A stretch of DNA of 64,000 nucleotides from Firmicutes bacterium UBA2203 (GTDB lineage Bacteria > Bacillota > Desulfotomaculia > Desulfotomaculales > Nap2-2B), in the NCBI GenBank assembly GCA_002327235.1, contig DCUX01000004.1:28020-92019 (forward strand), in the 5' to 3' direction. Below, in pieces: positions 21,304 to 61,959 of the stretch. A program made the translations under genes and the position numbers. The stretch's first letter is position 1; each line of letters opens with the position of its first letter. The notes under the pieces are model-generated. The model did not search any database, was not told the origin of the DNA, and saw only the letters and a program-made list of their open reading frames with translations.

Positions 21304-21364
21304 TTTCTGCTTGTTTTGGCTATCCTACCTCCTAAGGACGTATTCGTTAAACGGGGGAAAAAGG

Positions 21365-23170
21365 ATGGCTTTTAAATCAAGCCTCAAAGAGTTGCTTACT
21401 TTTCAAGCACCCGTAGAAAAAACCGGGGAACAAGAAACACCGCCAGGACAACCAGGACAAAAAGAAAAAAAAGAGCAGCCGGAAGAAAGAAAAAGAAACA
21501 AAAAAGAGCCTGAGTTAATACCCCTATCCTCCTCTCCTGAAAAACCCTCCCGGGTGCCCAAAAACCGTTTTCGTCGTCCGGTAAGGGCGGCAGCCTGGCC
21601 CAAGGTTCACGCGCCTAAAACAAAAAACGAAACAACTCAAAAGAAAATAGCAGCCAGTCTTAAGGTAAATATTACCCGGTTAAAGGAAATTTTTCACTTG
21701 CCCCAAAACAGGGACATTGTTTTTCGTGATTTTTCCATTGGGACAAACCCGCCGGTAACCGCCGCCCTTATTTTTGTTGACGGTTTAACCGACCGTAACT
21801 TACAGAATAGCCATGTTTTAGAGCCCTTAATGCTTTTATCCCGTTTGCGTTTAGACCCTGGTCCCACTTTACTGGAAACCGTCATGACCCGTCTTTTACC
21901 TGGCAATCAGGCTGAAACAACCGATGACCTTAACACGGTAGTTGACGCTATTTTAGATGGTTCAACGGCTATTTTAATTGATTTTTGTCCTAAGGCAATT
22001 TTTGTAGAAACAAAAGGATGGGAACACCGTACGGTTAGCCAGCCAACTGCGGAACTGGTCATCCGGGGTCCTCAGGAAGGTTTTACCGAAACCTTGCGGG
22101 TTAATACGGCTTTAATCCGCCGTTCATTGCACTCTCCTGATTTGGTGACCGAGTTTATTAAAGTAGGCCGTCTTAACCGGCTTAACTGCGCCGTAATGTA
22201 CGTTAAAGGTTTAACCGACCCTAAACTGGCGGGGGAAGTTAAAAACCGCCTTAGCCACCTGGCTACTGATTACGTAGGGGAAAGCGGTGTTTTAGAGCAG
22301 TTTATTGAGGACAATACCTTTGGTTTTGTGCCCCAAATCCTGACCACCGAAAGACCGGATCGCGTAGTGGCCGGACTTACCGAAGGCCAGGCGGCCCTTT
22401 TGCTGGAAGGAAACCCCTTTGCTTTACTTGTTCCAGCCACCTTTTTTACTCTTTTTCACACGGCCGAAGACGCTTATATTCGCTGGCCTTACGGAACTAT
22501 TTTAAGATTTATCCGTTTGTTTGGGTTTTTTATGGCTATCTTCCTTCCCGGTATTTATATAGCCATTATTGGTTACCACCACGAAATGATTCCCACGGAT
22601 TTGCTCATGTCTATTGCCGCCGCCCGGGAAAATGTTCCTTTTCCTTCGGTGGTGGAATTAGTAGTCATGGAGATTATTTTTGAACTTATCCGGGAGGCAG
22701 GTATTCGCATTCCCGGTTTAATTGGCCCTACCTTAAGTATTGTCGGGGCGTTGATTTTAGGTCAGGCGGCGGTGGCCGCAAATATTATCAGCCCTATTTT
22801 AATTATCGTGGTGGCCATTACGGCTATTGGCAGTTTTGCCGTACCCAATTATATTCTTACTTTTAGCGTTCGCCTGCTGCAATTTATTTATATCTTCTTA
22901 GGAGCAGTTTTTGGGGTTTGGGGATTGGTAGTAGGGGTTTATATCCAGCTTCTCCTTTTGGCCGGGATTAAATCCTTTGGCGTACCCTTTTTAGCCCCCC
23001 TAGCTACAATTAAACAGGCCACCGCCGACGTACTCATCAGAGGGCCGGTATGGAAGCAAGAAGAGCGTCCAGGTTTTCTTAAGCCCCAGCGTAAACAAAG
23101 GCAGCCTAAAGTAAGCCGTAAATGGTTACATCAGCCAAAAAAGGGGAGTTCTAATGCACCAGGAAAGTAA
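21365..23170 (+). CDS. spore germinant receptor subunit A (GerA/GerK family)
   Basis: GerAA-type soluble domain plus a C-terminal multi-TM region. ATG 21365 is preferred to the track start at 21311. It has a roughly 100-aa K/E/P-rich N-terminal extension. Confidence 0.88.
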   Translation: MAFKSSLKELLTFQAPVEKTGEQETPPGQPGQKEKKEQPEERKRNKKEPELIPLSSSPEKPSRVPKNRFRRPVRAAAWPKVHAPKTKNETTQKKIAASLKVNITRLKEIFHLPQNRDIVFRDFSIGTNPPVTAALIFVDGLTDRNLQNSHVLEPLMLLSRLRLDPGPTLLETVMTRLLPGNQAETTDDLNTVVDAILDGSTAILIDFCPKAIFVETKGWEHRTVSQPTAELVIRGPQEGFTETLRVNTALIRRSLHSPDLVTEFIKVGRLNRLNCAVMYVKGLTDPKLAGEVKNRLSHLATDYVGESGVLEQFIEDNTFGFVPQILTTERPDRVVAGLTEGQAALLLEGNPFALLVPATFFTLFHTAEDAYIRWPYGTILRFIRLFGFFMAIFLPGIYIAIIGYHHEMIPTDLLMSIAAARENVPFPSVVELVVMEIIFELIREAGIRIPGLIGPTLSIVGALILGQAAVAANIISPILIIVVAITAIGSFAVPNYILTFSVRLLQFIYIFLGAVFGVWGLVVGVYIQLLLLAGIKSFGVPFLAPLATIKQATADVLIRGPVWKQEERPGFLKPQRKQRQPKVSRKWLHQPKKGSSNAPGK

Positions 23171-24248
23171 AATAGGGCTAAAAGAGGCCATTATGCTGGT
23201 TACAATGGCGTTAATTACTGAGTTATTTCTTACCTTTCCGGCCGTTTTAGGCCATAAAGGACAGACGGCCGCCTGGCTAGTTCTTCTGGTAGCCACTTTA
23301 GTAGCCCTGGTTGCTTTTCTTCCCACGGCAATTTTACTGGAAAGGTATCCTGAGAAGACCATTATTGAAATTGGGGAAGAGTTGTTGGGTCCTATAGGCA
23401 ACGCTTTTTTTGCCCTAATTATTTTCCTTACTTTTCTAGTTATTACCAGTTTAATCTTACGTCAATATGCGGAACGCACCCTAACCGTAAGCTTAAATAA
23501 TTTACCTATAAGCGTAGCGATGGTGATGTTTTTAATTGGGGCGGCCGTAGCCTGCTACCTTGGTTTGGAAGCCATAAACCGCAGTGTTTGGATAGCTGGC
23601 TTCATTATTGTTTTTTTGCTTCTTTTGGTGCAATTTTTGCCTTTTCCTTATTGGCAAACGGATTACCTTTTTCCTTTAGGGGGCTTGGGTTTAAAAGAAA
23701 TGCTCTTTGAGGGCTTAAAAAGAAGTTCTCTTTTTGCGGAGGTGCTCATGCTGGCGATAATTTATCCCTCTTTGCCTAAAGGCGCCGTGCGTTCAGTAGG
23801 TTTAACCGGTCTTTTTCTAAGCGGTTTAATAATGGCCCTTACCATTTTCACCACCCAACTAGTTTTCCCGGTTCAAGTATTTCAGGAAATGTCTTTGCCC
23901 ACCTTTGAAACTTCCCGAATAATCTATTTTGGCCGCTTTATCCAGCGGTTAGAATCAATTTTTGTTCCCCTATGGGTTTTTGCCGGCTTAATTAAAGTTA
24001 GTCTTGGTTGCTATCTAATGTGTCTTATTCTTACCCAGTGGTTAAAACTACCTTATTACCGCCCCTTTATTTTACCGGTGGTGGTAATTACAATGGCTGC
24101 CGCCTTTATTCCGGCTAACGTTAGTGAGGCCGTATGGGTAGATACGCAAATTGTGCGGGTTTTTGGGGCCATTCCAGCTTTTGGCCTGCCATTCTTATTG
24201 CTTCTCCTTGCTTTTTGGCGGCAAAGGCAAAGGGGCCAGGTAAAATGA
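23154..24248 (+). CDS. spore germinant receptor subunit B (amino-acid-permease-like)
   Basis: 364-aa protein with about 10 TM helices. It overlaps the A subunit stop and the C subunit start. Confidence 0.88.
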   Translation: MHQESKIGLKEAIMLVTMALITELFLTFPAVLGHKGQTAAWLVLLVATLVALVAFLPTAILLERYPEKTIIEIGEELLGPIGNAFFALIIFLTFLVITSLILRQYAERTLTVSLNNLPISVAMVMFLIGAAVACYLGLEAINRSVWIAGFIIVFLLLLVQFLPFPYWQTDYLFPLGGLGLKEMLFEGLKRSSLFAEVLMLAIIYPSLPKGAVRSVGLTGLFLSGLIMALTIFTTQLVFPVQVFQEMSLPTFETSRIIYFGRFIQRLESIFVPLWVFAGLIKVSLGCYLMCLILTQWLKLPYYRPFILPVVVITMAAAFIPANVSEAVWVDTQIVRVFGAIPAFGLPFLLLLLAFWRQRQRGQVK

Positions 24249-25501
24249 AGCGGAAATTTTGCCTGTTTTTGCTTATTTGTTTACTGTTTCAGACCGGGTG
24301 TTGGGGTTTTCGGGAAGTAGATGAAGAAGCTTTTATCATGATTTTAGGGCTGGACAAAGGAAAAGAAAATTTGCTTGTTTTAACGGCGCAAATTGCGGTC
24401 CCGCGCGGTATGGGCGGCGGAGGAATGGGCCAGGGAGGGGGTAGCACCTCCGGCGGGCAGGCAAAGCCAACCATGGCTATAACGGTAGAGTGCCGTTCAA
24501 TTTTGGCCGGTTTAAATATGCTTAACGCTACTTTAGAAAGAAAGCCTTCCTTAGCCCACCTAAAGGTAGTTGTAGTTTCTGAAGAACTAGCCCGTCAGGG
24601 AATAAAAGCTTATTTAACCCAATTATTACGTTATTTCGAATTTCGGCGCAGCACTTTTTTGGTGGTTTCCCGCGGGCCGGCTCAAAAACTGATTAAACAG
24701 TTTCAACCAATAATGGAAAATAACCCGGCCAAATTTGCCGAACTTTTTATGGGCAGTCAGCATTACGTGGGTTTTATTCCTTTTGGGCAAGTTCACCACT
24801 TTTATAATGATCTAAGGTCAAACGCCGTGCAGCCGGTAGCCATGCTGGTTAGTTTAAAAGAAAAGCCGCCGGAGAATATACCGGCCGAAGAAGAACAATT
24901 TTCGGAGGGCCAATTTTATGCCGGCCAGTCGCCGCTTAAAGGAGGCAATAATATTGAGCTAATGGGTACGGCTGTTTTTTATCAGGACCGGATGGTGGGG
25001 GTACTAAACGGGGAAGAAACATTAATTTTAAACTTGTTACGTGGTTGGCTCAAACAAACGTTATTAACCATTCCTGACCCGGCCAACCCGAAATATTCGA
25101 TCTCCTTAAGAATAAAAATGGAAAGAAAACCTAAACTGAAAGTTACTTTAAGCCGGGGAGGGCCCAAAATCTACGTAAGAATATCTTTAGATGGGGAAAT
25201 TATTTCCACCCAAAGCAGCATAAATTACGGAAGTCCGGCTAAATTATCTTTACTAGAAGAAGAGTTAAATAAATTGCTGACTGAAAAAACCCAAAACTTA
25301 ATCGCTAAAACTCAGGATGAAATGCAGGCTGATATATTTGGCTTTGGAAACAAGGCCAGGCATTTGGTGGCTACCTGGCCCAAGTGGCAAAAGTTAAACT
25401 GGCCGGAACTTTTCCCTCAGGCCCAAACCGGCGTAATCGTAAAAATCCACCTCAGGCGCTTTGGCTTGTTAAGAAATATTAATCCTACCGGAGCACCGTA
25501 A
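24245..25501 (+). CDS. spore germinant receptor subunit C (lipoprotein)
   Basis: ATG 24245 (ATGA overlap with subunit B) gives MKRKFCLFLLICLLFQTGCW with a lipobox Cys. GerAC-family body. Confidence 0.88.
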   Translation: MKRKFCLFLLICLLFQTGCWGFREVDEEAFIMILGLDKGKENLLVLTAQIAVPRGMGGGGMGQGGGSTSGGQAKPTMAITVECRSILAGLNMLNATLERKPSLAHLKVVVVSEELARQGIKAYLTQLLRYFEFRRSTFLVVSRGPAQKLIKQFQPIMENNPAKFAELFMGSQHYVGFIPFGQVHHFYNDLRSNAVQPVAMLVSLKEKPPENIPAEEEQFSEGQFYAGQSPLKGGNNIELMGTAVFYQDRMVGVLNGEETLILNLLRGWLKQTLLTIPDPANPKYSISLRIKMERKPKLKVTLSRGGPKIYVRISLDGEIISTQSSINYGSPAKLSLLEEELNKLLTEKTQNLIAKTQDEMQADIFGFGNKARHLVATWPKWQKLNWPELFPQAQTGVIVKIHLRRFGLLRNINPTGAP

Positions 25502-29654: not shown

Positions 29655-30569
29655 ATGGTAAAATTGTACGACTATATTGATGACTTTTTAGCTTATTTAC
29701 AAGTGGAAAAGAATGCCTCTCCCCATACCCTAAAAAATTACCAGCTTGATTTATTTCAAGGACTGGATTATTTTAAACGAACCTTAAAAAAAGAGGACTT
29801 TCAAATCGCACCGGCTGATTTGAATTACCCCTTGTTACGGGCGTACCTGGCCAATTTAAAAGCGAAAGGTTTAGCCAGCACTACTTTAGCGCGTAAACTG
29901 GCGGCCTGGCGTTCGTTTTACCGCTTTTTAAACCGCGAAGGCAAGGTTAATCAAAACCCCTTCCTAAAAATAACTTACCCAAAACATCGGGCCAAATTAC
30001 CCCGTTTTCTTTTTCCTGACCAGTGCTGTTTGTTAATGGAGGTGGCCCGGGGCACCGATCCTTTAAGTCAGCGAAACTTGGCGATACTGGAGTGTCTTTA
30101 TGCCAGCGGCAGCAGGGTTAGTGAACTGGTTAATCTTAACCTGGCTAACGTTGACCTGGCCGCAGGTTACCTTAAGGTTACCGGCAAAGGGGCCCGTGAG
30201 CGTTTGGTTCCAGTAGGCAAGTACGCCGTTGAAGCTTTAAGACGGTACTTATTTGGCGGCCGGCAGGATTTAGTTAATCCGGATAAGACAGAGGAAGCTG
30301 TTTTTTTGAATTACCGGGGAGACCGCCTTTCGGCGCGGGGGATACGTAAAATATTAGCTAAATTAATTCGTCAATCCAGCCTGACCTACCGTATAAGCCC
30401 GCACGTGCTGCGGCATTCTTTTGCCACCCATATGCTGAACAACGGCGCGGATTTAAGGGCGGTCCAAGAATTGCTAGGACACGTGAGGCTGGCTACCACC
30501 CAAATATACACCCACGTAACCAAGGAAAAGTTAAAGCAGGTATACCGGCAAGCCCACCCGCGGGCTTAA
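29655..30569 (+). CDS. xerC: tyrosine recombinase XerC (CodV-like)
   Basis: 304 aa with the catalytic region HVLRHSFATHML ... LLGHVRLATTQIYTHV. Confidence 0.9.
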   Translation: MVKLYDYIDDFLAYLQVEKNASPHTLKNYQLDLFQGLDYFKRTLKKEDFQIAPADLNYPLLRAYLANLKAKGLASTTLARKLAAWRSFYRFLNREGKVNQNPFLKITYPKHRAKLPRFLFPDQCCLLMEVARGTDPLSQRNLAILECLYASGSRVSELVNLNLANVDLAAGYLKVTGKGARERLVPVGKYAVEALRRYLFGGRQDLVNPDKTEEAVFLNYRGDRLSARGIRKILAKLIRQSSLTYRISPHVLRHSFATHMLNNGADLRAVQELLGHVRLATTQIYTHVTKEKLKQVYRQAHPRA

Positions 30570-30595
30570 AAATACAGGCTTAAAATATAAAAATT

Positions 30596-30619
30596 AAGCG
30601 GCAGGATATTCTGCCGCTT
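30596..30619. terminator. bidirectional hairpin terminator (better U-tract for the minus-strand gene)
   Basis: AAGCGGCAG-GATATT-CTGCCGCTT, a 9-bp stem. The minus strand continues AATTTTTATATTTT. Confidence 0.75.
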
Positions 30620-30643
30620 TAAATAAGACCCCTTTTGTAATTT

Positions 30644-31627
30644 TTAAGGATCAACCGGTGTAGCTGACTGGATAGTATCAAGGAAAACATTAAAGATAGT
30701 TAAACCAACAGCCGTACGCTGGAAGGTAATGGTACAGACAGTGGTGCTGTCATGAACTGCAGGGGGGGTAGCTGTATCAGTGAATTCAAGTGGTACGGGG
30801 AAAGTAACTGTTTTTGCAGTAACCGGGTCTGTAAAGCTTATTGTGTCCAGTCCCCCGGCAAAGCCGCCCACTTCGGCAAAGGAAGCCGCCCCGGCAGCAT
30901 TGGTTTTCTTGGTTATGCTTACGGTGGTAGTGTCTACTTTCCGGGTAAGGGTGACATCCACATTTGGTATACCCGTTCCCACTGCCTCCAGAAGGTTAAT
31001 GACCGGCGGACTCTGGCACCTTTGAGGCGGGTAAAGAGGCGCATCGGGTGGGCAGACAAACGGCTGGGGCGGTGGACTGCAAGGATCCAGTTCGCAAAAA
31101 CCGTAGCTTGGTACAAGAAGCTTAACCAGGGCTTTAACCTGAATTTCTTTGCAGACCTTTACCTGGCTCCAAATAAGTTGATTACCGGTGACAGGGTCGG
31201 TAACCACACCGCACTCACAATCGCCAACGTCAAGAATTTGACATTGGACCAATGTTCCAAGAGGGGCCCACATAAAGGCCTGGGTTATAGCCTGAAGAGT
31301 GGTAGTATAAGTAGTAACTAAATTTCCGTTTACGTCCCTTATTTCTCCGGTAATGCCTACCCGGTTAACTACTTTAACGGGCCGGTAGTAAGGCGGATTA
31401 AAATCACCAAATCCGGCAAAAAAACAAACGGCACTGCCTGGCACTACACTACAGGTGCAGGTAGAACCTGCCGGTATAGGAACCGGAGCAGGTATACTAC
31501 CTCCAAGAAGTTCCTCGGCGGCACATTGGTCGTAAACTTTGAGCACCTCGATGCAATCTTTTTCCGTATACGGCGGGCAATTTGGAGTCCCGTCTACAAA
31601 CGGGCACTTACCTGGTTTAATGGCCAT
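30644..31627 (-). CDS. hypothetical protein rich in Cys and Pro (16 Cys), with no signal peptide
   Basis: 327-aa ORF with GGAGGG 8 nt upstream of the ATG. N-terminal Cys motifs (KCPF, NCPPY, DCIEVLKVYDQC), a beta-rich middle, the Pro/Cys linker CSPPPQPFVCPPDAPLYPPQRCQSPP, and a T/V-rich C-terminal beta domain. No family recognised. Confidence 0.8.
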   Translation of the reverse strand: MAIKPGKCPFVDGTPNCPPYTEKDCIEVLKVYDQCAAEELLGGSIPAPVPIPAGSTCTCSVVPGSAVCFFAGFGDFNPPYYRPVKVVNRVGITGEIRDVNGNLVTTYTTTLQAITQAFMWAPLGTLVQCQILDVGDCECGVVTDPVTGNQLIWSQVKVCKEIQVKALVKLLVPSYGFCELDPCSPPPQPFVCPPDAPLYPPQRCQSPPVINLLEAVGTGIPNVDVTLTRKVDTTTVSITKKTNAAGAASFAEVGGFAGGLDTISFTDPVTAKTVTFPVPLEFTDTATPPAVHDSTTVCTITFQRTAVGLTIFNVFLDTIQSATPVDP

Positions 31628-31932
31628 AATAGATTCCCTCCTTTCTTTAAAGTAATACTATATTGAGCATCTAAAACAATATATGGGAAACATATGCTAA
31701 GTGTTACCATATAAAACATAATATGGTATTATATAAACCTGAAATGTTTTAAATAAAAAAATTTTCTAGCCTAAGTAAAAAGAAATTTCTTTTCCCACAA
31801 GGTGATGATAATAAAGCGAAGGGGCAATAAAGCGGTTTTTCCGATAGTTTCCTTTAAGGTTTATATGGGACATTATGGCTATAAATACATATAATAACTA
31901 AAAGAGATTAGGCCTAAAAGGAGGCTTATTTT

Positions 31933-32262
31933 ATGAATTTAGAAATAAGTGCTAATCCAGAATTTAATCATGAACCGGAGAAAAACGAAGAAAAACAAGA
32001 AAAACAACCAGAAATAACCGCCGAAAGAGAAATTAAGGCTGAAGCAAGAAAAACTAAAGACGAACAAGTCCCGGCGTATTTTGCTGATTTACCGCGCACG
32101 GTTATAGAATACGCGCAACAATCAATGGTACCTCCTCAAGTAATTGAGTATTATAAGCAATACGGTCTGGATGAACAGATTATAAAAATTTTGTTTCACG
32201 TGCAACCTTATGACGATGCTTCATATAAGCCGGTCAATGACTTAACGGGCCATATTTGCTGA
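31933..32262 (+). CDS. hypothetical protein with an acidic, Lys-rich N-terminus
   Basis: 109-aa ORF with AAAGGAGG upstream. No family recognised. Confidence 0.6.
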   Translation: MNLEISANPEFNHEPEKNEEKQEKQPEITAEREIKAEARKTKDEQVPAYFADLPRTVIEYAQQSMVPPQVIEYYKQYGLDEQIIKILFHVQPYDDASYKPVNDLTGHIC

Positions 32263-32452
32263 AAAAAGTATCGGGCTAGCGGGCTAGCGCAACATAAGAA
32301 CACCGGTTAGCAGTTGCCAGAAAAATATTAGTTTCTTACAGTGCCTGACGGCGAGTTGCCGGTTATAAAAATATAGTAAAACGCTTGCCGTTTTACTGAA
32401 TACTTACTGTGGGTTAATATTTTGTTGGCAAAAATTAACCTTAGGGGGGTGA

Positions 32453-33142
32453 ATGGCTATGTCTAATATATTGTCTAGCTTTAAAAAAAGGTTTTACGCT
32501 TCTTTTAACCTTCCTTTAGCCAGTTATCCTTTAGATTGCCGGGTTGCTGAAGCATATTTATATAGTAAGCTGCTTGAAGATAAAACACTTTTAACCTTCG
32601 GCAAATACAATCTTATTTTTTGTTTTAGTAACCATCATAAGGATTTTTACCCGGTACATTTAACCAGCCGGACATTTTGCGAAAAATTTGAGGTGACCGA
32701 AACACTGCCGAAAGACATGGAAATCAAGCTGTATTTTAACCAGCCTTTATCCGCTACCACGCGCCTTGGCACGCAACAAAACCCAACCCTATTAAGTTCG
32801 CTAAAAAATATTTTTTTATTTCTTACTTGGGTGGAGGTACAGATAGAGGGAGAAATTACGATTGAATTTATCACCAATAAAGCTCAAGAAACAGCGGAAA
32901 CAGCTAAAATTATACCCGGTAAAAGACTAAACGTAACTTGTTTTGAGCAAAAGAATATGTTGGTTAATCAGGCGGAGGTAGCTCAAGCAGGCGTAAAACA
33001 AATAAAGCCTGACGCGGCAACGGGGGTTACCATACCATTCCCGGCTTTATACCCTGCATACACAAATCAAATACCTGACCAGATGAAGTTGCGCCAGACT
33101 TTTTTTCAAAAATATACTCCTCCTCCCAGTAAACCGGGGTAA
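32453..33142 (+). CDS. hypothetical protein
   Basis: 229-aa ORF with AGGGGGG upstream. No TM helix or signal peptide. No family recognised. Confidence 0.6.
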   Translation: MAMSNILSSFKKRFYASFNLPLASYPLDCRVAEAYLYSKLLEDKTLLTFGKYNLIFCFSNHHKDFYPVHLTSRTFCEKFEVTETLPKDMEIKLYFNQPLSATTRLGTQQNPTLLSSLKNIFLFLTWVEVQIEGEITIEFITNKAQETAETAKIIPGKRLNVTCFEQKNMLVNQAEVAQAGVKQIKPDAATGVTIPFPALYPAYTNQIPDQMKLRQTFFQKYTPPPSKPG

Positions 33143-33250
33143 TTAACAGGGAATTTAAAATAATAAAAATAATAAAAAGAATAAAGAGTTTTAAACTTGC
33201 CTTATTGGTTATAGTTGTGATAAATTAATGCATAGTAGGCTTGGGTATGA

Positions 33251-33289
33251 ATAAAGCCTTTTTATAAATTTTTTATAAAAAGGCTTTAT
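33251..33289. repeat. perfect 18-bp AT-rich hairpin directly upstream of hslV
   Basis: ATAAAGCCTTTTTATAAA-TTT-TTTATAAAAAGGCTTTAT. Confidence 0.85.
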
Positions 33290-33297
33290 AAAAAAAG

Positions 33298-33852
33298 GTG
33301 GCGAATTTTTTTTTGTTTCACGGCACTACGGTAGTAGCCGTAAAAAAAAATAATCAGGTGGCTTTAGCTGGAGATGGTCAGGTAACCTTTGCGCAAAATA
33401 CAATTTTAAAACACCGCGCCCGAAAAATACGCCGTTTGTATAACGGGCAAGTGCTGGCCGGTTTTGCGGGGGCGGTGGCTGATGCTTTTACTTTGTTTGA
33501 TAAATTTGAAAAAAAACTGGAGTCATACAGCGGGAATTTAGCCAGGGCGGCCGTTGAACTAGCTAAAGAATGGCGAACAGACCGTTTTTTACGTCGTTTG
33601 GAAGCGCTGCTTATCGTAGCTAATCAGGAAAGCTTATTAATAATATCCGGTAACGGAGAAGTAATTGATCCTGATGACGGAGTAGCGGCCATAGGCTCTG
33701 GTGGGCCGTACGCGTTAGCTGCGGCGCGTGCTTTAGTCAAATATACTGATTTAACGGCCAGCCAGGTTGCTTACGAAGCCCTGTCCATTGCCGCCGGTAT
33801 TTGTGTTTATACTAATACGGAAATAACTGTGGAAGAACTGGGAGGAAAATGA
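33298..33852 (+). CDS. hslV: ATP-dependent protease subunit HslV (ClpQ/CodW)
   Basis: 184 aa, collinear with B. subtilis CodW (FHGTTVVAV ... [14 protein letters not shown]). The start could be GTG 33298 or TTG 33313. Confidence 0.93.
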
Positions 33853-42294: not shown

Positions 42295-43497
42295 TTACTT
42301 CTTTAAAGAAGCCCTTCTTCCCTGCATACCGGTATCCCTTAGTTTTACTTTCACCGTCAAATAAACTTGGGCGTTGGTAAATTCTTCATCCCAGCGGTTT
42401 TTAAGCATTGACCATTCCCTTTTATGCTTGCAGTGGAAAGCCTCCCCAAAACCAAAACTGTCCACTTTATATTCCCCCTGAACTTTGTCTAAGGTTGTTT
42501 TTATATGCTGCCTTATTTCAGCGGCGGCTTTATTTTCTACGATCTTTATCATTTCCGGCTGGGTAAAGTCCTCTTCGTCCTGTTGCTCAATTAGGTCTAC
42601 TTCAGCCCTTACGGTCAGGTAAAATTTAATTTCTCCCTTTTGGTAGGCCGGCTCGATTTTTGTATTACCTGCTATTACTTTTAAAGATATATTTTTATCC
42701 GGGTATATTGGCGAGGGTACTGTAATCCTCATTTCATGCATTTCCCCTTTTATGCAACGTAAACCCTGGGTCTCCCTACTGTCTAGCCAGCCTATAAGTT
42801 TATCTCCTTTAAAAATAGCCGTCCCGGTGATAACAATTTCCTGGTGGTGGTGAACCTTTTCCAGGCCGGGACCCTGTGCCACCCCCTGATTTTTTAATTC
42901 CACCCGTGTGAGAACCGGGTCAGTCCCGCGGCTGGCCAGGTCCTGACTGAAGTCCCGGAATTTTACCGCATAACCTGTTCTAAACCGGGCTAAAAAACCG
43001 ACCGCTTGGGCAGAGGTTATTTGCAGTTCCGAATGGCTTTCCAGCACTTTTTTTGCCTCCTGTGGGGTAGCCATAACCCATACTGTTCCCCGGCTGAGCG
43101 GCTGGCGGTGGAAAAAGTTATTTACATCCTTAACCCCGTGCCGGCACAACCTTTCACCTAAAATTAAAACCACGTTATGGCCCAGGTAAAGGTGACGGGA
43201 TACTTGCTGGGATAATTTATCTTGGGCGTCAAAAACAGTATCTCCGGTGGCGGAGATCACCCAGGTAATATTTTGATTCATCGCGGCTCCCCCGCCCGGA
43301 CCTCCTCCCATGCCGCCTCCGCCAAAAGCCGCCGGTCTGGCCAACTGGTAAGTAAGCTGGATTTTATTATCTTTAGTGTAATCTACTCCTGTACCCAAAA
43401 TAATGGCAATCTCGTTTAACTCTTTTTTGCTCCAGCAGCCGGAAATATTTAACGTTATGAAAAGTAAAAATAAAATTAAAAAAAGTTTTTGCTTCAT
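42295..43497 (-). CDS. spore germinant receptor subunit C (lipoprotein)
   Basis: 400 aa. The signal peptide ends at the lipobox NISGCW. GerAC-family body. Confidence 0.88.
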   Translation of the reverse strand: MKQKLFLILFLLFITLNISGCWSKKELNEIAIILGTGVDYTKDNKIQLTYQLARPAAFGGGGMGGGPGGGAAMNQNITWVISATGDTVFDAQDKLSQQVSRHLYLGHNVVLILGERLCRHGVKDVNNFFHRQPLSRGTVWVMATPQEAKKVLESHSELQITSAQAVGFLARFRTGYAVKFRDFSQDLASRGTDPVLTRVELKNQGVAQGPGLEKVHHHQEIVITGTAIFKGDKLIGWLDSRETQGLRCIKGEMHEMRITVPSPIYPDKNISLKVIAGNTKIEPAYQKGEIKFYLTVRAEVDLIEQQDEEDFTQPEMIKIVENKAAAEIRQHIKTTLDKVQGEYKVDSFGFGEAFHCKHKREWSMLKNRWDEEFTNAQVYLTVKVKLRDTGMQGRRASLKK

Positions 43498-44594
43498 TTT
43501 TTACCCGTTTCCTTAATTAAAACAATTATTAAGAGCAAAAAAGGGATTAAAAATTCAAAGGTAAGGGCATAAAAGGGAAAATCCTCGGTTAAAAAATTTA
43601 AAAGGTCAATAATATTGGGGTGCAAAAGGTAACTTAAGGAGGTAACAATTACCGCTAAAGGTAAGATTAAAGGATGGTAGTCTTTTAATCCCAAAAGCTG
43701 GGCGCTGCCTAAAGTGGCGGCCCAGAAAAAAAGAGTGGCTTTCACCGTACCGCTGGTTATCCAAATAACTATAGGGATTATCTCTAGTCTTTCAAAAAAG
43801 TTGGCAATATTAATCATTTTGGTGCCATTTAAAACGGGAAAAAGGTAACTGCCGGTCAGGGCGGGGCCAAAAATAAGCAGGACCCCTACGGTGGACAATT
43901 CGATTAAAACTAAAACGAAAAACAAGGCTTTAATTGTCAGGCGGTAAACGTTCTTTTGTTCCGCCAGGTAAGGGATGATAACCGCCAGGGTAATAATTTC
44001 CCCAAACCAGGAAAGGGGAGTGAGAGTACTTTTGGCCAGGGATAATAAACTGGTGTCAAAAACAGGTAAAATGTTAACTACTTTCATTTCCGGGGTAGCC
44101 AAAACAAAAAGGATAGTTAATAAGCCTGCGTTAAGAGGTAAAAAAAGCTGGCTAAGGCGGGCCAATACTTCCAAACCACTATAGGCAAGGTAAGCAAACA
44201 TAATGGTACCGTGAATAAGAAATACTACCAGGGGTGTTTCGGGCATAAAGGCCGCGACAATGGTGGAACAGTATTCCCGGTCTACTAAAGCGCAAAGGTG
44301 AATAAACAGCCAGACATAAAAAAAACCAATAATTTTGCCCGGGAAACGGCCTAAAATACGGGGAAGATATTCAAATAAAGTCTGACCCGGAAAGCGCAAG
44401 CTTAAATTTATGACGACCAAAGAAATTAAAACCCCGCCGGCAAAGGCGACCAGAAAAGATAGCCAGGCGTCTTGTTGAGCGTGGGCCACCGTGTTTTGCG
44501 GAACAAAAAGAATTAAGGTGGCGTAAATCATGGTCACCAGTAAATATAAGGTTTGTCGGGCGTCAATCTTACCGCCTTCGAGTATTTTACCCAC
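43494..44594 (-). CDS. spore germinant receptor subunit B (permease-like)
   Basis: 366-aa multi-TM protein. It overlaps the subunit C start by 4 nt. Confidence 0.88.
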   Translation of the reverse strand: MGKILEGGKIDARQTLYLLVTMIYATLILFVPQNTVAHAQQDAWLSFLVAFAGGVLISLVVINLSLRFPGQTLFEYLPRILGRFPGKIIGFFYVWLFIHLCALVDREYCSTIVAAFMPETPLVVFLIHGTIMFAYLAYSGLEVLARLSQLFLPLNAGLLTILFVLATPEMKVVNILPVFDTSLLSLAKSTLTPLSWFGEIITLAVIIPYLAEQKNVYRLTIKALFFVLVLIELSTVGVLLIFGPALTGSYLFPVLNGTKMINIANFFERLEIIPIVIWITSGTVKATLFFWAATLGSAQLLGLKDYHPLILPLAVIVTSLSYLLHPNIIDLLNFLTEDFPFYALTFEFLIPFLLLIIVLIKETGKK

Positions 44595-44653
44595 CCCCTC
44601 CTTTTTTAAGGTATAAAAATCTAAAATTAAGAAAGAATTTAAGCCCCTATCCT

Positions 44654-46252
44654 TTATTTTCTTTTTTCCGGTGGTTTTGGTTTTAAACCCGCTTTCATCC
44701 GGTGCAGGTTTTCTTTACCCAATAAATGGGGACGGGTTAGCATGGCCCACCAGGGGGCGCGCACCACCACATCTTTTAATTCGGCTGGAGACAAAGGCAT
44801 AACCGGATATAAAAAAGGAATCCCAAAGGAGCGTAAAGAGGCCAAGTGGGTTATTAAGATGATTAAACTAGTAATTAAGCCAAATAAACCGGTAAAGGCG
44901 GCAATCATGGTTAAAGGGAACCTGATTAATCTTAAAGACAAGGTTCCGGCGTAACAAAGCGTAAATGAAGCAATACCGGTTAAGGCCACCGCAATTACCG
45001 TTGCCGGAGATACCAGCCCCGCCCGCACTGAAGCATCTCCAATCACAATTGCCCCTACAATGCTTACCGCCTGACCTACCGGCTGGGGCATGCGAATGCC
45101 GGCCTCTCTTAAGGTTTCAAAAGTTAAGTCCATCAGTAAAACTTCCACAATAGTGGGAAAAGGGACCGCTTCTCTTTGGCCGGCAATGCTTAAAAGCAAA
45201 GCCGTAGGTAGCATTTCCTGGTGGAAAGTAAGTAAAGCCACGTAGATAGCCGGCGCGGTAACGAAAAATATTAAAGCTATGAGGCGGATTAGCCTGATTA
45301 AAGAATAGAAGAAGTAGCGTTGGTAATAATCTTCCGGGGATTGAATAATTTCGTTAAATAAGGTCGGAACGGTAAGCACATAAGGGGAGCCGTCGGTAAG
45401 GATGGCCGCCCGGCCCTCTAAGAGCATGGCCGCCACTTTATCTACCCGGTCGGTATGGTTAATGGTGCAAAAGGGCGATAAGGGGTTATCGTCAATTAAT
45501 TCTTCCAGGTAACCTGATTCTAATACCGCGTCAATCTCAATCCGGGAAAGCCTTTCTTTTACCTCGGTCACCAGCCCGGGATAAACCACCCCTTTAATGT
45601 AGATTACGGCCACATCGGTACGGGTAATTTGGCCGATTGGCCTGACTTCAATTTTTAAGGCCGGGTTTTTAATCCGCCGCCGCAGTAAAGAAGTATTGGT
45701 GCGCAAGGTCTCCACAAAAGACTCGCGGGGGCCGCGGACCACCACGTCGGTTTTCGAATCTTGGATGCTTCTGGCTTCCCAGCCGCGGGCGCTGTTAATA
45801 ATCGCTCTGGCGTGCCCATCAACCAGTAAGACGGTATCCCCGGACATAATGGCGTCAATAAGGCGCGCTAAACTGTCCGTTTCATCAATCTGGTGAATGC
45901 AAAGGCCGCGGTCGCGGATAAAATCAAAAGCCTGGGCTTTGCTAATTTTATATTCTTTGGGTAAGGCCGGGGGTACCTCCAGGGAAAGGGTGCGCATGAC
46001 AAAGTTGCTGACCTGGATTTTATCCGCCAGGCCGTCGACATAAATTAAAGCCAGGCGAATATCGGGGAGCTGGGCAAAATTAAATTCCCGGAAGACCACG
46101 TCAGAGCAATCGGCCAGGATAAAATGTAAGGTGGTTAGATTTTCTTTAAGGCTAGTTTTTAGCTTTTGGCTGCGCCAGGCTTGTTCCTTAACTCCCGGGC
46201 TTTCTAGTTTGGTGGCTTCCTGGGTCTTTTTTGACTTAAAAAAATCGAACAT
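44654..46252 (-). CDS. spore germinant receptor subunit A
   Basis: 532-aa GerAA/GerKA family protein: soluble domain plus a C-terminal TM bundle. Confidence 0.9.
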   Translation of the reverse strand: MFDFFKSKKTQEATKLESPGVKEQAWRSQKLKTSLKENLTTLHFILADCSDVVFREFNFAQLPDIRLALIYVDGLADKIQVSNFVMRTLSLEVPPALPKEYKISKAQAFDFIRDRGLCIHQIDETDSLARLIDAIMSGDTVLLVDGHARAIINSARGWEARSIQDSKTDVVVRGPRESFVETLRTNTSLLRRRIKNPALKIEVRPIGQITRTDVAVIYIKGVVYPGLVTEVKERLSRIEIDAVLESGYLEELIDDNPLSPFCTINHTDRVDKVAAMLLEGRAAILTDGSPYVLTVPTLFNEIIQSPEDYYQRYFFYSLIRLIRLIALIFFVTAPAIYVALLTFHQEMLPTALLLSIAGQREAVPFPTIVEVLLMDLTFETLREAGIRMPQPVGQAVSIVGAIVIGDASVRAGLVSPATVIAVALTGIASFTLCYAGTLSLRLIRFPLTMIAAFTGLFGLITSLIILITHLASLRSFGIPFLYPVMPLSPAELKDVVVRAPWWAMLTRPHLLGKENLHRMKAGLKPKPPEKRK

Positions 46253-61357: not shown

Positions 61358-61582
61358 ATGGTTATAATCATGTATGAAAAGGAAATCGAGCTGAAAGCGC
61401 AAGAGCTTCCTGAAAATTTAAAGAGGGAGGTTTTGGATTATATGGAGTTTCTACTAAAGAAGTATAAAGGCAAGGAAACCAAGGCAAAGGAGTTCAAGTT
61501 TGACTGGGAAGGGGGCTTATTAGAGCTACGGGATAAATTCACTTCTGTTGAATTGCAACACAGGGTTTTGGAGTGGAGATAA
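61358..61582 (+). CDS. DUF2281-like antitoxin
   Basis: 74 aa with the motif LPENLKREVLDYMEFLLKKYKG. Its stop overlaps the PIN gene start (TAATG). Confidence 0.7.
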   Translation: MVIIMYEKEIELKAQELPENLKREVLDYMEFLLKKYKGKETKAKEFKFDWEGGLLELRDKFTSVELQHRVLEWR

Positions 61583-61959
61583 TGTTTTTAGTGGATACAA
61601 ATGTATTTTTAGAAATACTCTTGAGGCAGGATGAGAAAGAAAGTTGTAAGAAGTTTCTAGATAACAATATCGGAAATCTCAACATAACAGATTTCTCTTT
61701 GCATTCTATTGGTGTAATCTTGTTCAAATATGGCAAAGAGGAAATTTTTCAGAAATTTGTTGAAGATGTCCTACCTACTACCAGATTTCTCTCATTGCCG
61801 ATGGAATTGTATAAAGAGGTTGTATACGTCGGGAAAAGCCTGAATTTAGATTTTGATGATGCCTATCAGTACAGCATAGCCAAATATCATGGGTTGAAAG
61901 TAGTTACAATGGACAAGGATTTTAAGAAGATAAAAGATGTGGAAATTTTGTTCCTGTAG
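61582..61959 (+). CDS. vapC: PIN-domain toxin (VapC-like)
   Basis: MFLVDTNVFLEIL (first acidic residue) and a later D-x-x-x-Y and MD motif. About 125 aa. Confidence 0.8.
   Translation: MFLVDTNVFLEILLRQDEKESCKKFLDNNIGNLNITDFSLHSIGVILFKYGKEEIFQKFVEDVLPTTRFLSLPMELYKEVVYVGKSLNLDFDDAYQYSIAKYHGLKVVTMDKDFKKIKDVEILFL

Follow-up and report, generated by a model that had tools for sequence, protein, structure and literature searches.

What is the role of a Cys- and Pro-rich protein that carries no signal peptide and is encoded, in an anaerobic clostridial lineage, beside genes such as topA, xerC, hslV and codY? The question is raised by a complete coding sequence of 327 amino acids (aa) plus stop (30644-31627, minus strand, ATG start, taken from the open reading frame (ORF) list and its translation) in 64,000 nucleotides (nt) of Firmicutes bacterium UBA2203, contig DCUX01000004.1 of assembly GCA_002327235.1, positions 28,020-92,019 of the forward strand. 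We refer to this whole 64-kb stretch as the window. An initial annotation, made from the letters alone, had suggested a spore-surface structural protein, and the suggestion is backed by homology to the family NF052457, by a conserved promoter of the sigma-K type and by a taxonomic range of spore formers. Because of these three independent lines of evidence, we put the probability at roughly 75% that the protein belongs to the structural proteins of the outer spore layers (an outer coat, a crust or a layer resembling an exosporium) in an endospore former of the Peptococcaceae type. No homology to a vegetative enzyme or regulator turned up in the homology searches.

The composition of the protein sets it apart from its neighbors. 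Cys occupies 16 positions (residues 8, 17, 25, 35, 57, 59, 68, 129, 137, 139, 159, 178, 183, 192, 204 and 298) and Pro another 36; against the 45 other ORFs of the window, in which Cys and Pro make up 1.1% and 4.7% of residues, the binomial probabilities of these counts are ~1e-6 and ~2e-6, respectively. There is no hydrophobic N-terminal segment or signal peptide in the 327 aa, the highest 19-residue Kyte-Doolittle mean being 0.86 over the first 40 windows of the hydropathy scan. Translation and hydropathy therefore bear out the 16 Cys and the missing signal peptide of the initial annotation, and the N-terminal strings that it quoted (KCPF, NCPPY, DCIEVLKVYDQC and CTC) are all found in the protein. 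Further along, CELDPCSPPPQPFVCPPDAPLYPPQRCQSPP covers residues 178-208, which form most of a Pro/Cys linker, and VDVTLTRKVDTTTVSITKKTNAAGAASF covers residues 223-250. No paralogue is encoded elsewhere in the window, as judged by tblastn with the protein.

In Pfam and NCBIfam scans, the sole significant family match was to NF052457 (‘BMQ_0737 family morphogenetic spore coat protein’), which aligns with residues 84-202 at an E-value of 9e-9 and 35.8 bits. The curated cut-off of this model is 71 bits, and it was missed by the full protein as well as by residues 1-206 alone (37.2 bits); the direct match spans positions 80-192 of the 199 profile positions, i.e. the second half only. The matches of its relatives show that this is no chance result. 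The same model was matched by 29 of 30 homologues and by 37 of 43 relatives that consist of the N-terminal domain only, with a best E-value of 2e-20, and two relatives, P0062 (73.8 bits) and P0068 (71.6 bits), passed the cut-off over profile positions 1-193 of 199. P0062 in turn is 33% identical to residues 21-202 of the window protein over 195 aa (BLASTP E-value 4e-19), and the two proteins have in common the motifs PGxCP..CPP, CIExxKVYDxC, ALVKLLVPSYGFC and CPPxxLFPPQ. Ten lower-ranked representative matches were also compared with NCBIfam, none of which scored above the NF052457 cut-off, and a phmmer search with P0062 gave only ‘hypothetical’ or source-less entries among the 120 listed of 151 matches. 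Because of the direct match, the matches of its relatives, the two relatives that pass the cut-off and the BLASTP alignment with P0062, we assign residues 1-206 to the BMQ_0737 superfamily by sequence, as a divergent member that is not an equivalog by the NCBI threshold.

The superfamily is barely studied and has one characterized member. A 2014 study of BMQ_0737 reportedly describes an outer-layer integrity protein of Bacillus megaterium whose null mutant loses integrity. A green fluorescent protein (GFP) fusion places it more closely, since a later study localized BMQ_0737-GFP in B. megaterium with the outer-coat and exosporium proteins and found that antibody can reach it (PMC4656864). Such a location and mutant phenotype are known for B. 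megaterium only. The initial annotation had looked elsewhere for relatives, giving the CotY/CotZ/ExsY and Ena families as examples. At E-values of 1 or below, Pfam gave no match to CotY/CotZ/ExsY (PF10612) or to Ena (DUF3992, PF13157) for the protein and its 43 N-domain relatives, and CotY, CotZ, ExsY, CdeC and CdeM were absent from the results of the family homology searches. The string V-x-K-V-Y-D-x-C, which had been taken for a faint echo of CotY or Ena proteins, is instead a hallmark motif of the BMQ_0737 superfamily and one of the two patterns used in the family scan.

The second line of evidence is the promoter. Upstream of the gene, a strong ribosome-binding site read from the sequence, AAAGGAGGG (31636-31644, minus strand), lies 8 nt before the ATG and a candidate -10 element, CATATATTG (31677-31685, minus strand), 58 nt before it. 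The corresponding -35 element is GTAACA (31702-31707, minus strand), with its core AC at 31703-31704 and 17 nt from AC to CATA, such that the site reads GTAACA-N16-CATATATTG, i.e. AC-N17-CATATATTG. In Clostridioides difficile, sigma-K promoters follow a consensus of AC (-35) and CATATAAT (-10), and the -35 element of sigma-E promoters is ATA instead (PMC3789822). This C. difficile consensus, AC-N16/17-CATATAAT, is the one that we used. Of 21 orthologous loci, 18 carry the pattern AC-N16/17-CATAnnnT ahead of the start (mean 0.79 and maximum 5 in 1,000 shuffling trials), and the remaining three have one-base variants; the pattern also precedes the gene in 49 of 57 distant loci of the family (shuffles: mean 2.2, maximum 7). 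Some of these 57 loci come from GC-rich genomes, in which the -10 element reads CATAGGCT, with no TATAAT. A position matrix built from 19 non-redundant orthologous loci shows CCATATAATG (C-C-A-T-A-T-A-A-T-G) to be nearly invariant, the positions C-A-T-A-T-A-A-T being kept in 16-19 loci and ACA at -35 in 14-16. Since the conserved AC and CATA pattern fits the C. difficile sigma-K consensus, the family carries a promoter of the sigma-K type, the kind that serves late mother-cell genes. A sigma-G promoter was also considered and rejected, as the -35 element departs from the GnATA of the sigma-G consensus.

The third line of evidence is the distribution of the family. The ORF is a genuine gene: a single-sequence search returned 42 homologues of the protein, the nearest (93% identical) in Peptococcaceae bacterium SCADC1_2_3, and a profile search with the N-terminal domain extended the family to 370 clusters (90% identity) and 523 representatives (50% identity). 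No functional name was found in either set, and the 523 are all labeled ‘hypothetical’. Carriers among species-representative genomes are Peptococcaceae, Desulfotomaculum, Pelotomaculum propionicicum, Desulfovirgula thermocuniculi, Moorellales, Thermacetogeniaceae, Syntrophaceticus, Thermaerobacter and Ammonifex, often with several family copies in one genome. These lineages are endospore formers, and the family is almost wholly restricted to endospore-forming lineages of the Bacillota. The window itself contains two GerA germinant-receptor operons, and its host is therefore a spore former: the first comprises GerA, a spore permease and GerAC (42295-46252, minus strand), and the second has a further GerAC (24134-25501, plus strand), with its partners probably at 21311-24248.

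The initial annotation had described a beta-rich middle, a Pro/Cys linker and a beta-patterned C-terminus, and this layout agrees with an AlphaFold2 model that we built with a 30-sequence alignment (mean predicted local distance difference test (pLDDT) score of 87.9). Residues 1-22 (31562-31627, minus strand) are predicted to form a flexible N-terminal extension (pLDDT 56-75) with the conserved Cys8 and Cys17 in a PGKCP...NCPP context, and the PGxCP...CPP of this extension is part of the family consensus. The beta-rich, BMQ_0737-like core follows at residues 23-173 (31109-31561, minus strand); it contains the motifs CIEVxKVYDxC and KALVKLLVP and most of the region matched by NF052457 (84-202), and four of its Cys (25, 35, 129 and 159) are invariant in the family alignment. 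Its predicted strands are unusually long, at 17-24 residues (23-46, 81-97, 103-120, 126-143 and 150-173, with pLDDT >90). Residues 174-208 (31004-31108, minus strand; pLDDT 53-57) comprise SYGFC, with which the domain ends, and then the Pro/Cys linker; of the four linker Cys (178, 183, 192 and 204), Cys178 and Cys183 are invariant and Cys192 is nearly so, together with a PPQ motif. Finally, residues 209-327 (30647-31003, minus strand) are modeled as a C-terminal sandwich of 10 beta strands (pLDDT 82-98), present in the long-form clade only.

This C-terminal domain is probably transthyretin- or prealbumin-like, judging from repeated weak matches. Sub-threshold Pfam matches were obtained to SdrD_B in 8 of 16 members (best E-value 1.4e-4), to CarboxypepD_reg in 5 of 16 (1.3e-4) and to the SpaA prealbumin-like family in 2 of 16. 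The window domain itself is below the Pfam cut-offs for SdrD_B (PF17210; 14.2 versus 29.7 bits) and for Ig_DR_A0283-like (17.1 versus 27.1 bits), and a sequence search of the PDB with the C-domain profile placed the transthyretin-like 3qva at an E-value of 0.064. No PDB entry was matched significantly in sequence searches that started from the full protein or from profiles of its N- and C-terminal domains. The initial annotation had proposed an Ig- or prealbumin-like fold for this region, a proposal that is plausible and, with all family matches below threshold, unproven. It had also pointed to Foldseek; for the AlphaFold2 model, neither the PDB nor BFVD gave a match at an E-value of 1e-3 or below. 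The acetylcholine-binding protein (AChBP) and phage neck proteins among the top Foldseek matches were discarded as meaningless, with template-modeling (TM) scores of 0.26 or less, and the only fold match, 3e8v, had a probability of 1.0 and a TM score of 0.64, its position on the C-terminal domain being assumed.

One alternative is that the protein forms the subunit of a spore appendage or fiber in the manner of Ena, where beta-rich subunits are stacked and stapled by disulfides through a flexible, Cys-bearing N-terminal connector to the neighboring subunit, giving a fiber and not a sheet. The flexible extension of ~22 residues with its two conserved Cys, the many conserved Cys of the core, and the combination of a late mother-cell promoter with no signal peptide would all suit such a subunit. 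We nevertheless consider it improbable: the Ena family was not matched by the protein or its relatives in the Pfam comparison above, the predicted core strands of 17-24 residues found no significant Foldseek counterpart in the PDB, and BMQ_0737, the sole characterized relative, is described as a protein of outer-layer integrity and not as an appendage.

The wider family raises another alternative. Its commonest form is ~200 aa long and consists of the domain alone, and the window protein belongs to a clade of ~325 aa with the extra C-terminal domain. Desulfovirgula thermocuniculi DSM 16036 carries a long form (locus L018), and Pelotomaculum propionicicum has short ones (L060 and L065). In other relatives the domain is fused to DUF7933/DUF11, or to SBBP repeats and Ig-like domains, and by eye we also noted fusions to beta-propeller repeats of the NHL, YVTN or FG-GAP type in proteins of up to ~1,000 aa. 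The large fusion relatives (P0148, P0208, P0163, P0249, P0142, P0069 and P0050) have no signal peptide. Averaged over 330 relatives, 7.2% of residues are Cys and 10.5% are Pro, and a hydrophobic N-terminus occurs in just 3. The signal-peptide-less large fusions suggest, from sequence, that the BMQ_0737-like domain anchors variable surface modules. The beta-propeller and Ig-like binding modules, along with a conserved CxC and closely spaced Cys that could coordinate a metal, could also suit a non-structural spore protein. Such a protein, a product of the mother cell caught within the coat or between the spore layers, would bind metal or buffer redox state through its Cys or bind a ligand through the prealbumin-like domain. 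This, too, seems unlikely to us, as neither metal-binding nor enzyme families came up in Pfam, NCBIfam and PDB sequence searches, the characterized homologue is one on which the integrity of the outer layer depends, and 7% Cys with 10% Pro across 330 relatives is typical of cross-linked coat proteins.

Very improbable, in our estimation, is a sigma-A-transcribed vegetative protein unrelated to spores, either cytoplasmic and Cys-rich or an envelope protein exported non-classically: although the upstream GTAACA-18-TATATT matches 9 of the 12 positions of the sigma-70 consensus, sigma-70-like sites occur in the region at shuffle level (6 found, 6.6 expected), a sigma-A promoter was rejected because the would-be -35 TTG is not conserved among orthologues whereas the C-A before TATAAT is invariant and GC-rich distant relatives keep CATAnnnT without TATAAT, and the family is both confined to spore-forming lineages and homologous to a spore-coat family.

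Several points weigh against placing the protein in the outer spore layers. The case for the protein and its clostridial relatives is computational throughout, and the comparison with the Bacillus BMQ_0737 was made through the NF052457 model and intermediate relatives, not its own sequence. With a score of half the NF052457 cut-off, the protein is no equivalog and its function could have diverged, and its Cys could bind metal instead of forming disulfides. Foldseek against the PDB and BFVD gave no structural relative that points to a mode of assembly. With the 9 of 12 matches given above, the promoter could pass for a sigma-A site of moderate quality, and sigma-E shares the -10 element of the CATA type, which leaves it uncertain at what stage of the mother-cell program the gene would be expressed. 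Lastly, family members occur in metagenome-assembled genomes (MAGs) labeled Pseudomonadota, Chitinophagales and Betaproteobacteria (L075, L082 and P0275); these three copies are probably mis-binned contigs of Bacillota.

For an outer-layer structural protein, the evidence would fit the following course of events. Transcription would start late in the mother cell from the sigma-K-type promoter, and the protein, having no signal peptide, would be made in the mother-cell cytoplasm and then added to the surface of the forming spore. Assembly or anchoring would fall to the N-terminal BMQ_0737-like domain (~205 aa, beta-rich, with ~12 conserved Cys), which may self-assemble. Once the reducing environment of the cytoplasm is lost, the Cys of the domain, the N-terminal extension and the linker would probably lock the assembly by disulfides. 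The Pro/Cys linker would act as a stiff spacer, from which the C-terminal beta-sandwich, probably prealbumin-like, would hang and be presented outward. The products of two neighboring genes, orf109 and orf229, which have a sigma-K-type promoter of their own, would probably act with the protein and may interact with it.

A broader and more tentative possibility, which we regard as distinctly less probable, is that the BMQ_0737-like domain is a general spore-surface anchor in anaerobic Bacillota, assembling into the outermost layer and covalently tethering whatever is fused to it. The fused parts would be the prealbumin-like domain in the window protein, and NHL, SBBP or YVTN propellers, DUF11/DUF7933 and FG-GAP-like repeats in relatives of up to ~1,000 aa. 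Together with orf109 and orf229, the gene might then constitute a three-gene sigma-K module that builds an undescribed outer layer in Desulfotomaculia-type bacteria, from a fold without a solved relative.

The two partner genes are conserved alongside the long-form clade. orf109 (31933-32262, plus strand) and orf229 (32453-33142, plus strand) have no Pfam or NCBIfam family; the N-terminal ~145 aa of orf229 are conserved and its tail reads PPPxKPG, and the proteins of its type share the tail ‘IPSRPGL...PPPKPxGAGG’. A single-sequence AlphaFold2 model of orf229 was uninformative (pLDDT 34). In 20 of the 29 long-form loci, a homologue of orf229 is found at a distance of 150-810 nt from the orthologue, and in most of these 20 a homologue of orf109 adjoins that of orf229 (loci with homologues of the pair include L004, L005, L006, L013-L015, L017, L020, L022, L023, L025, L066 and L088). 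The usual layout is convergent, the long-form gene facing orf229 and then orf109, both on the other strand; in the lineage of the window, the pair is divergent and shares a 305-bp intergenic region with the 327-aa gene. On the plus strand of this region lies a sigma-K-type promoter for orf109, AC-N16-CATATAATA (31870-31896), which is the only AC-N16-CATATAAT match in the window (0.04 expected by chance), and AC-N16-CATATAATA is also found upstream of orf109 homologues at other loci.

The wider context is less constant. On one side the gene is flanked by dprA, topA and xerC, and on the other by the two family-less ORFs and then hslV, hslU and codY, such that, in the region 29655-33852, the gene and its two partners sit between xerC and hslV in an otherwise standard topA-xerC-hslVU-codY cluster. 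Conserved synteny with xerC and hslV was considered and set aside, as the surroundings vary among orthologues and only orf109 and orf229 travel along. Because more distant orthologues are found in unrelated contexts, the module was apparently inserted at this cluster. Between the convergent xerC and the 327-aa gene there is a GC-rich hairpin (30596-30619, not assigned to a strand) of 9 pairs, 6 of them G-C, which is terminator-like on the minus strand with a AATTTTTATA tail.

Some further observations concern the surroundings of family members and the remainder of the window. A CAP-domain gene lies within ~5 kb of a family member at 46 of 90 loci (for example L005 9180-9965, L087 3809-4654, L089 8371-9039 and L090 4127-4489, with 42 further loci), and there is none in the window; the CAP genes are YkwD-like, although their 114-131 bits fall short of the 171 that TIGR02909 requires, and some appear by eye to have a signal peptide. 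Small family-less proteins of 174-180 aa with 17-19 Cys were seen a few kb from a family member, beside large TPR-glycosyltransferase genes (L005 49-591 and L088 2785-3309; also L020, L023 and L036). No tRNA genes were found in the 64 kb of the window. At 61358-61582 and 61573-61959 (both plus strand) there is a small overlapping gene pair, the second product of which starts with MEIMFLVDTNVF and by eye resembles a PIN-domain toxin, so the two may be toxin and antitoxin genes; the opposite strand has a loose AC...CATATAAT match at 61463.

To our knowledge, the composition of the spore coat and exosporium is almost unknown outside Bacillus and a few Clostridium species, and the majority of the coat proteins of B. 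subtilis are not known to have counterparts among anaerobes of the Desulfotomaculum, Pelotomaculum and Moorella groups. The protein described here offers a concrete candidate for an outer-layer protein in anaerobes of the Desulfotomaculum, Pelotomaculum and Moorella type, and it ties an unannotated family of 523 clusters at 50% identity to one characterized relative in B. megaterium. The family-wide sigma-K-type promoter and the two conserved partner genes are further additions. These results overturn nothing; they show a protein of a known kind in new lineages and with a new architecture. The promoter shared by the family, its modular fusions and the partner genes are likely to be helpful to spore specialists without surprising them. 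If the domain does prove to be a self-assembling anchor, it could be put to use in spore-surface display.

Compared with known spore proteins, the likeness is in some cases one of kind and in others one of descent. CotY, CotZ and ExsY, as well as CdeC and CdeM of C. difficile, are Cys-rich proteins that self-assemble in the crust or exosporium; CotY and ExsY reportedly form assemblies that withstand SDS and come apart with reductant. They resemble the window protein in being Cys-rich, signal-peptide-less and under late mother-cell control, with presumed disulfide cross-linking in the outermost layer, but they show no detectable sequence relationship to it. Ena1 and Ena2 are likewise beta-rich and without a signal peptide, and their flexible, Cys-bearing N-terminal extension has a parallel in the window protein, where it may act as a connector between subunits. 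However, the window protein is much larger, and its predicted strands of 17-24 residues are without a Foldseek match in the PDB. In its C-terminal domain, the closest comparison is with transthyretin/prealbumin-like domains (Cna-B, SdrD_B and CarboxypepD_reg, PF13620), which it resembles in the opening pattern G-V-x-V-x-L...T-D-x-x-G-x-A-x-F, in the repeated weak family matches and in the predicted beta-sandwich. It differs from the prealbumin-like domains of surface proteins in that the window protein has neither a sortase signal nor a signal peptide, all matches are sub-threshold, and the domain has a conserved HDSxTxC motif of its own.

The likeness of descent is to BMQ_0737 of Bacillus (Priestia) megaterium QM B1551. 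The N-terminal 206 aa of the window protein are homologous to it by the route described above, and in relatives scoring above the family cut-off, the richness in Cys and the motifs of the window protein recur. Neither BMQ_0737 nor the window protein has a signal peptide, and a role in the outer spore layers would be expected for both. The window protein differs in coming from an anaerobic clostridial lineage and not from Bacillus, in carrying an additional C-terminal beta-sandwich of ~120 aa behind its Pro/Cys linker, and in being encoded by a gene that has two conserved partners.

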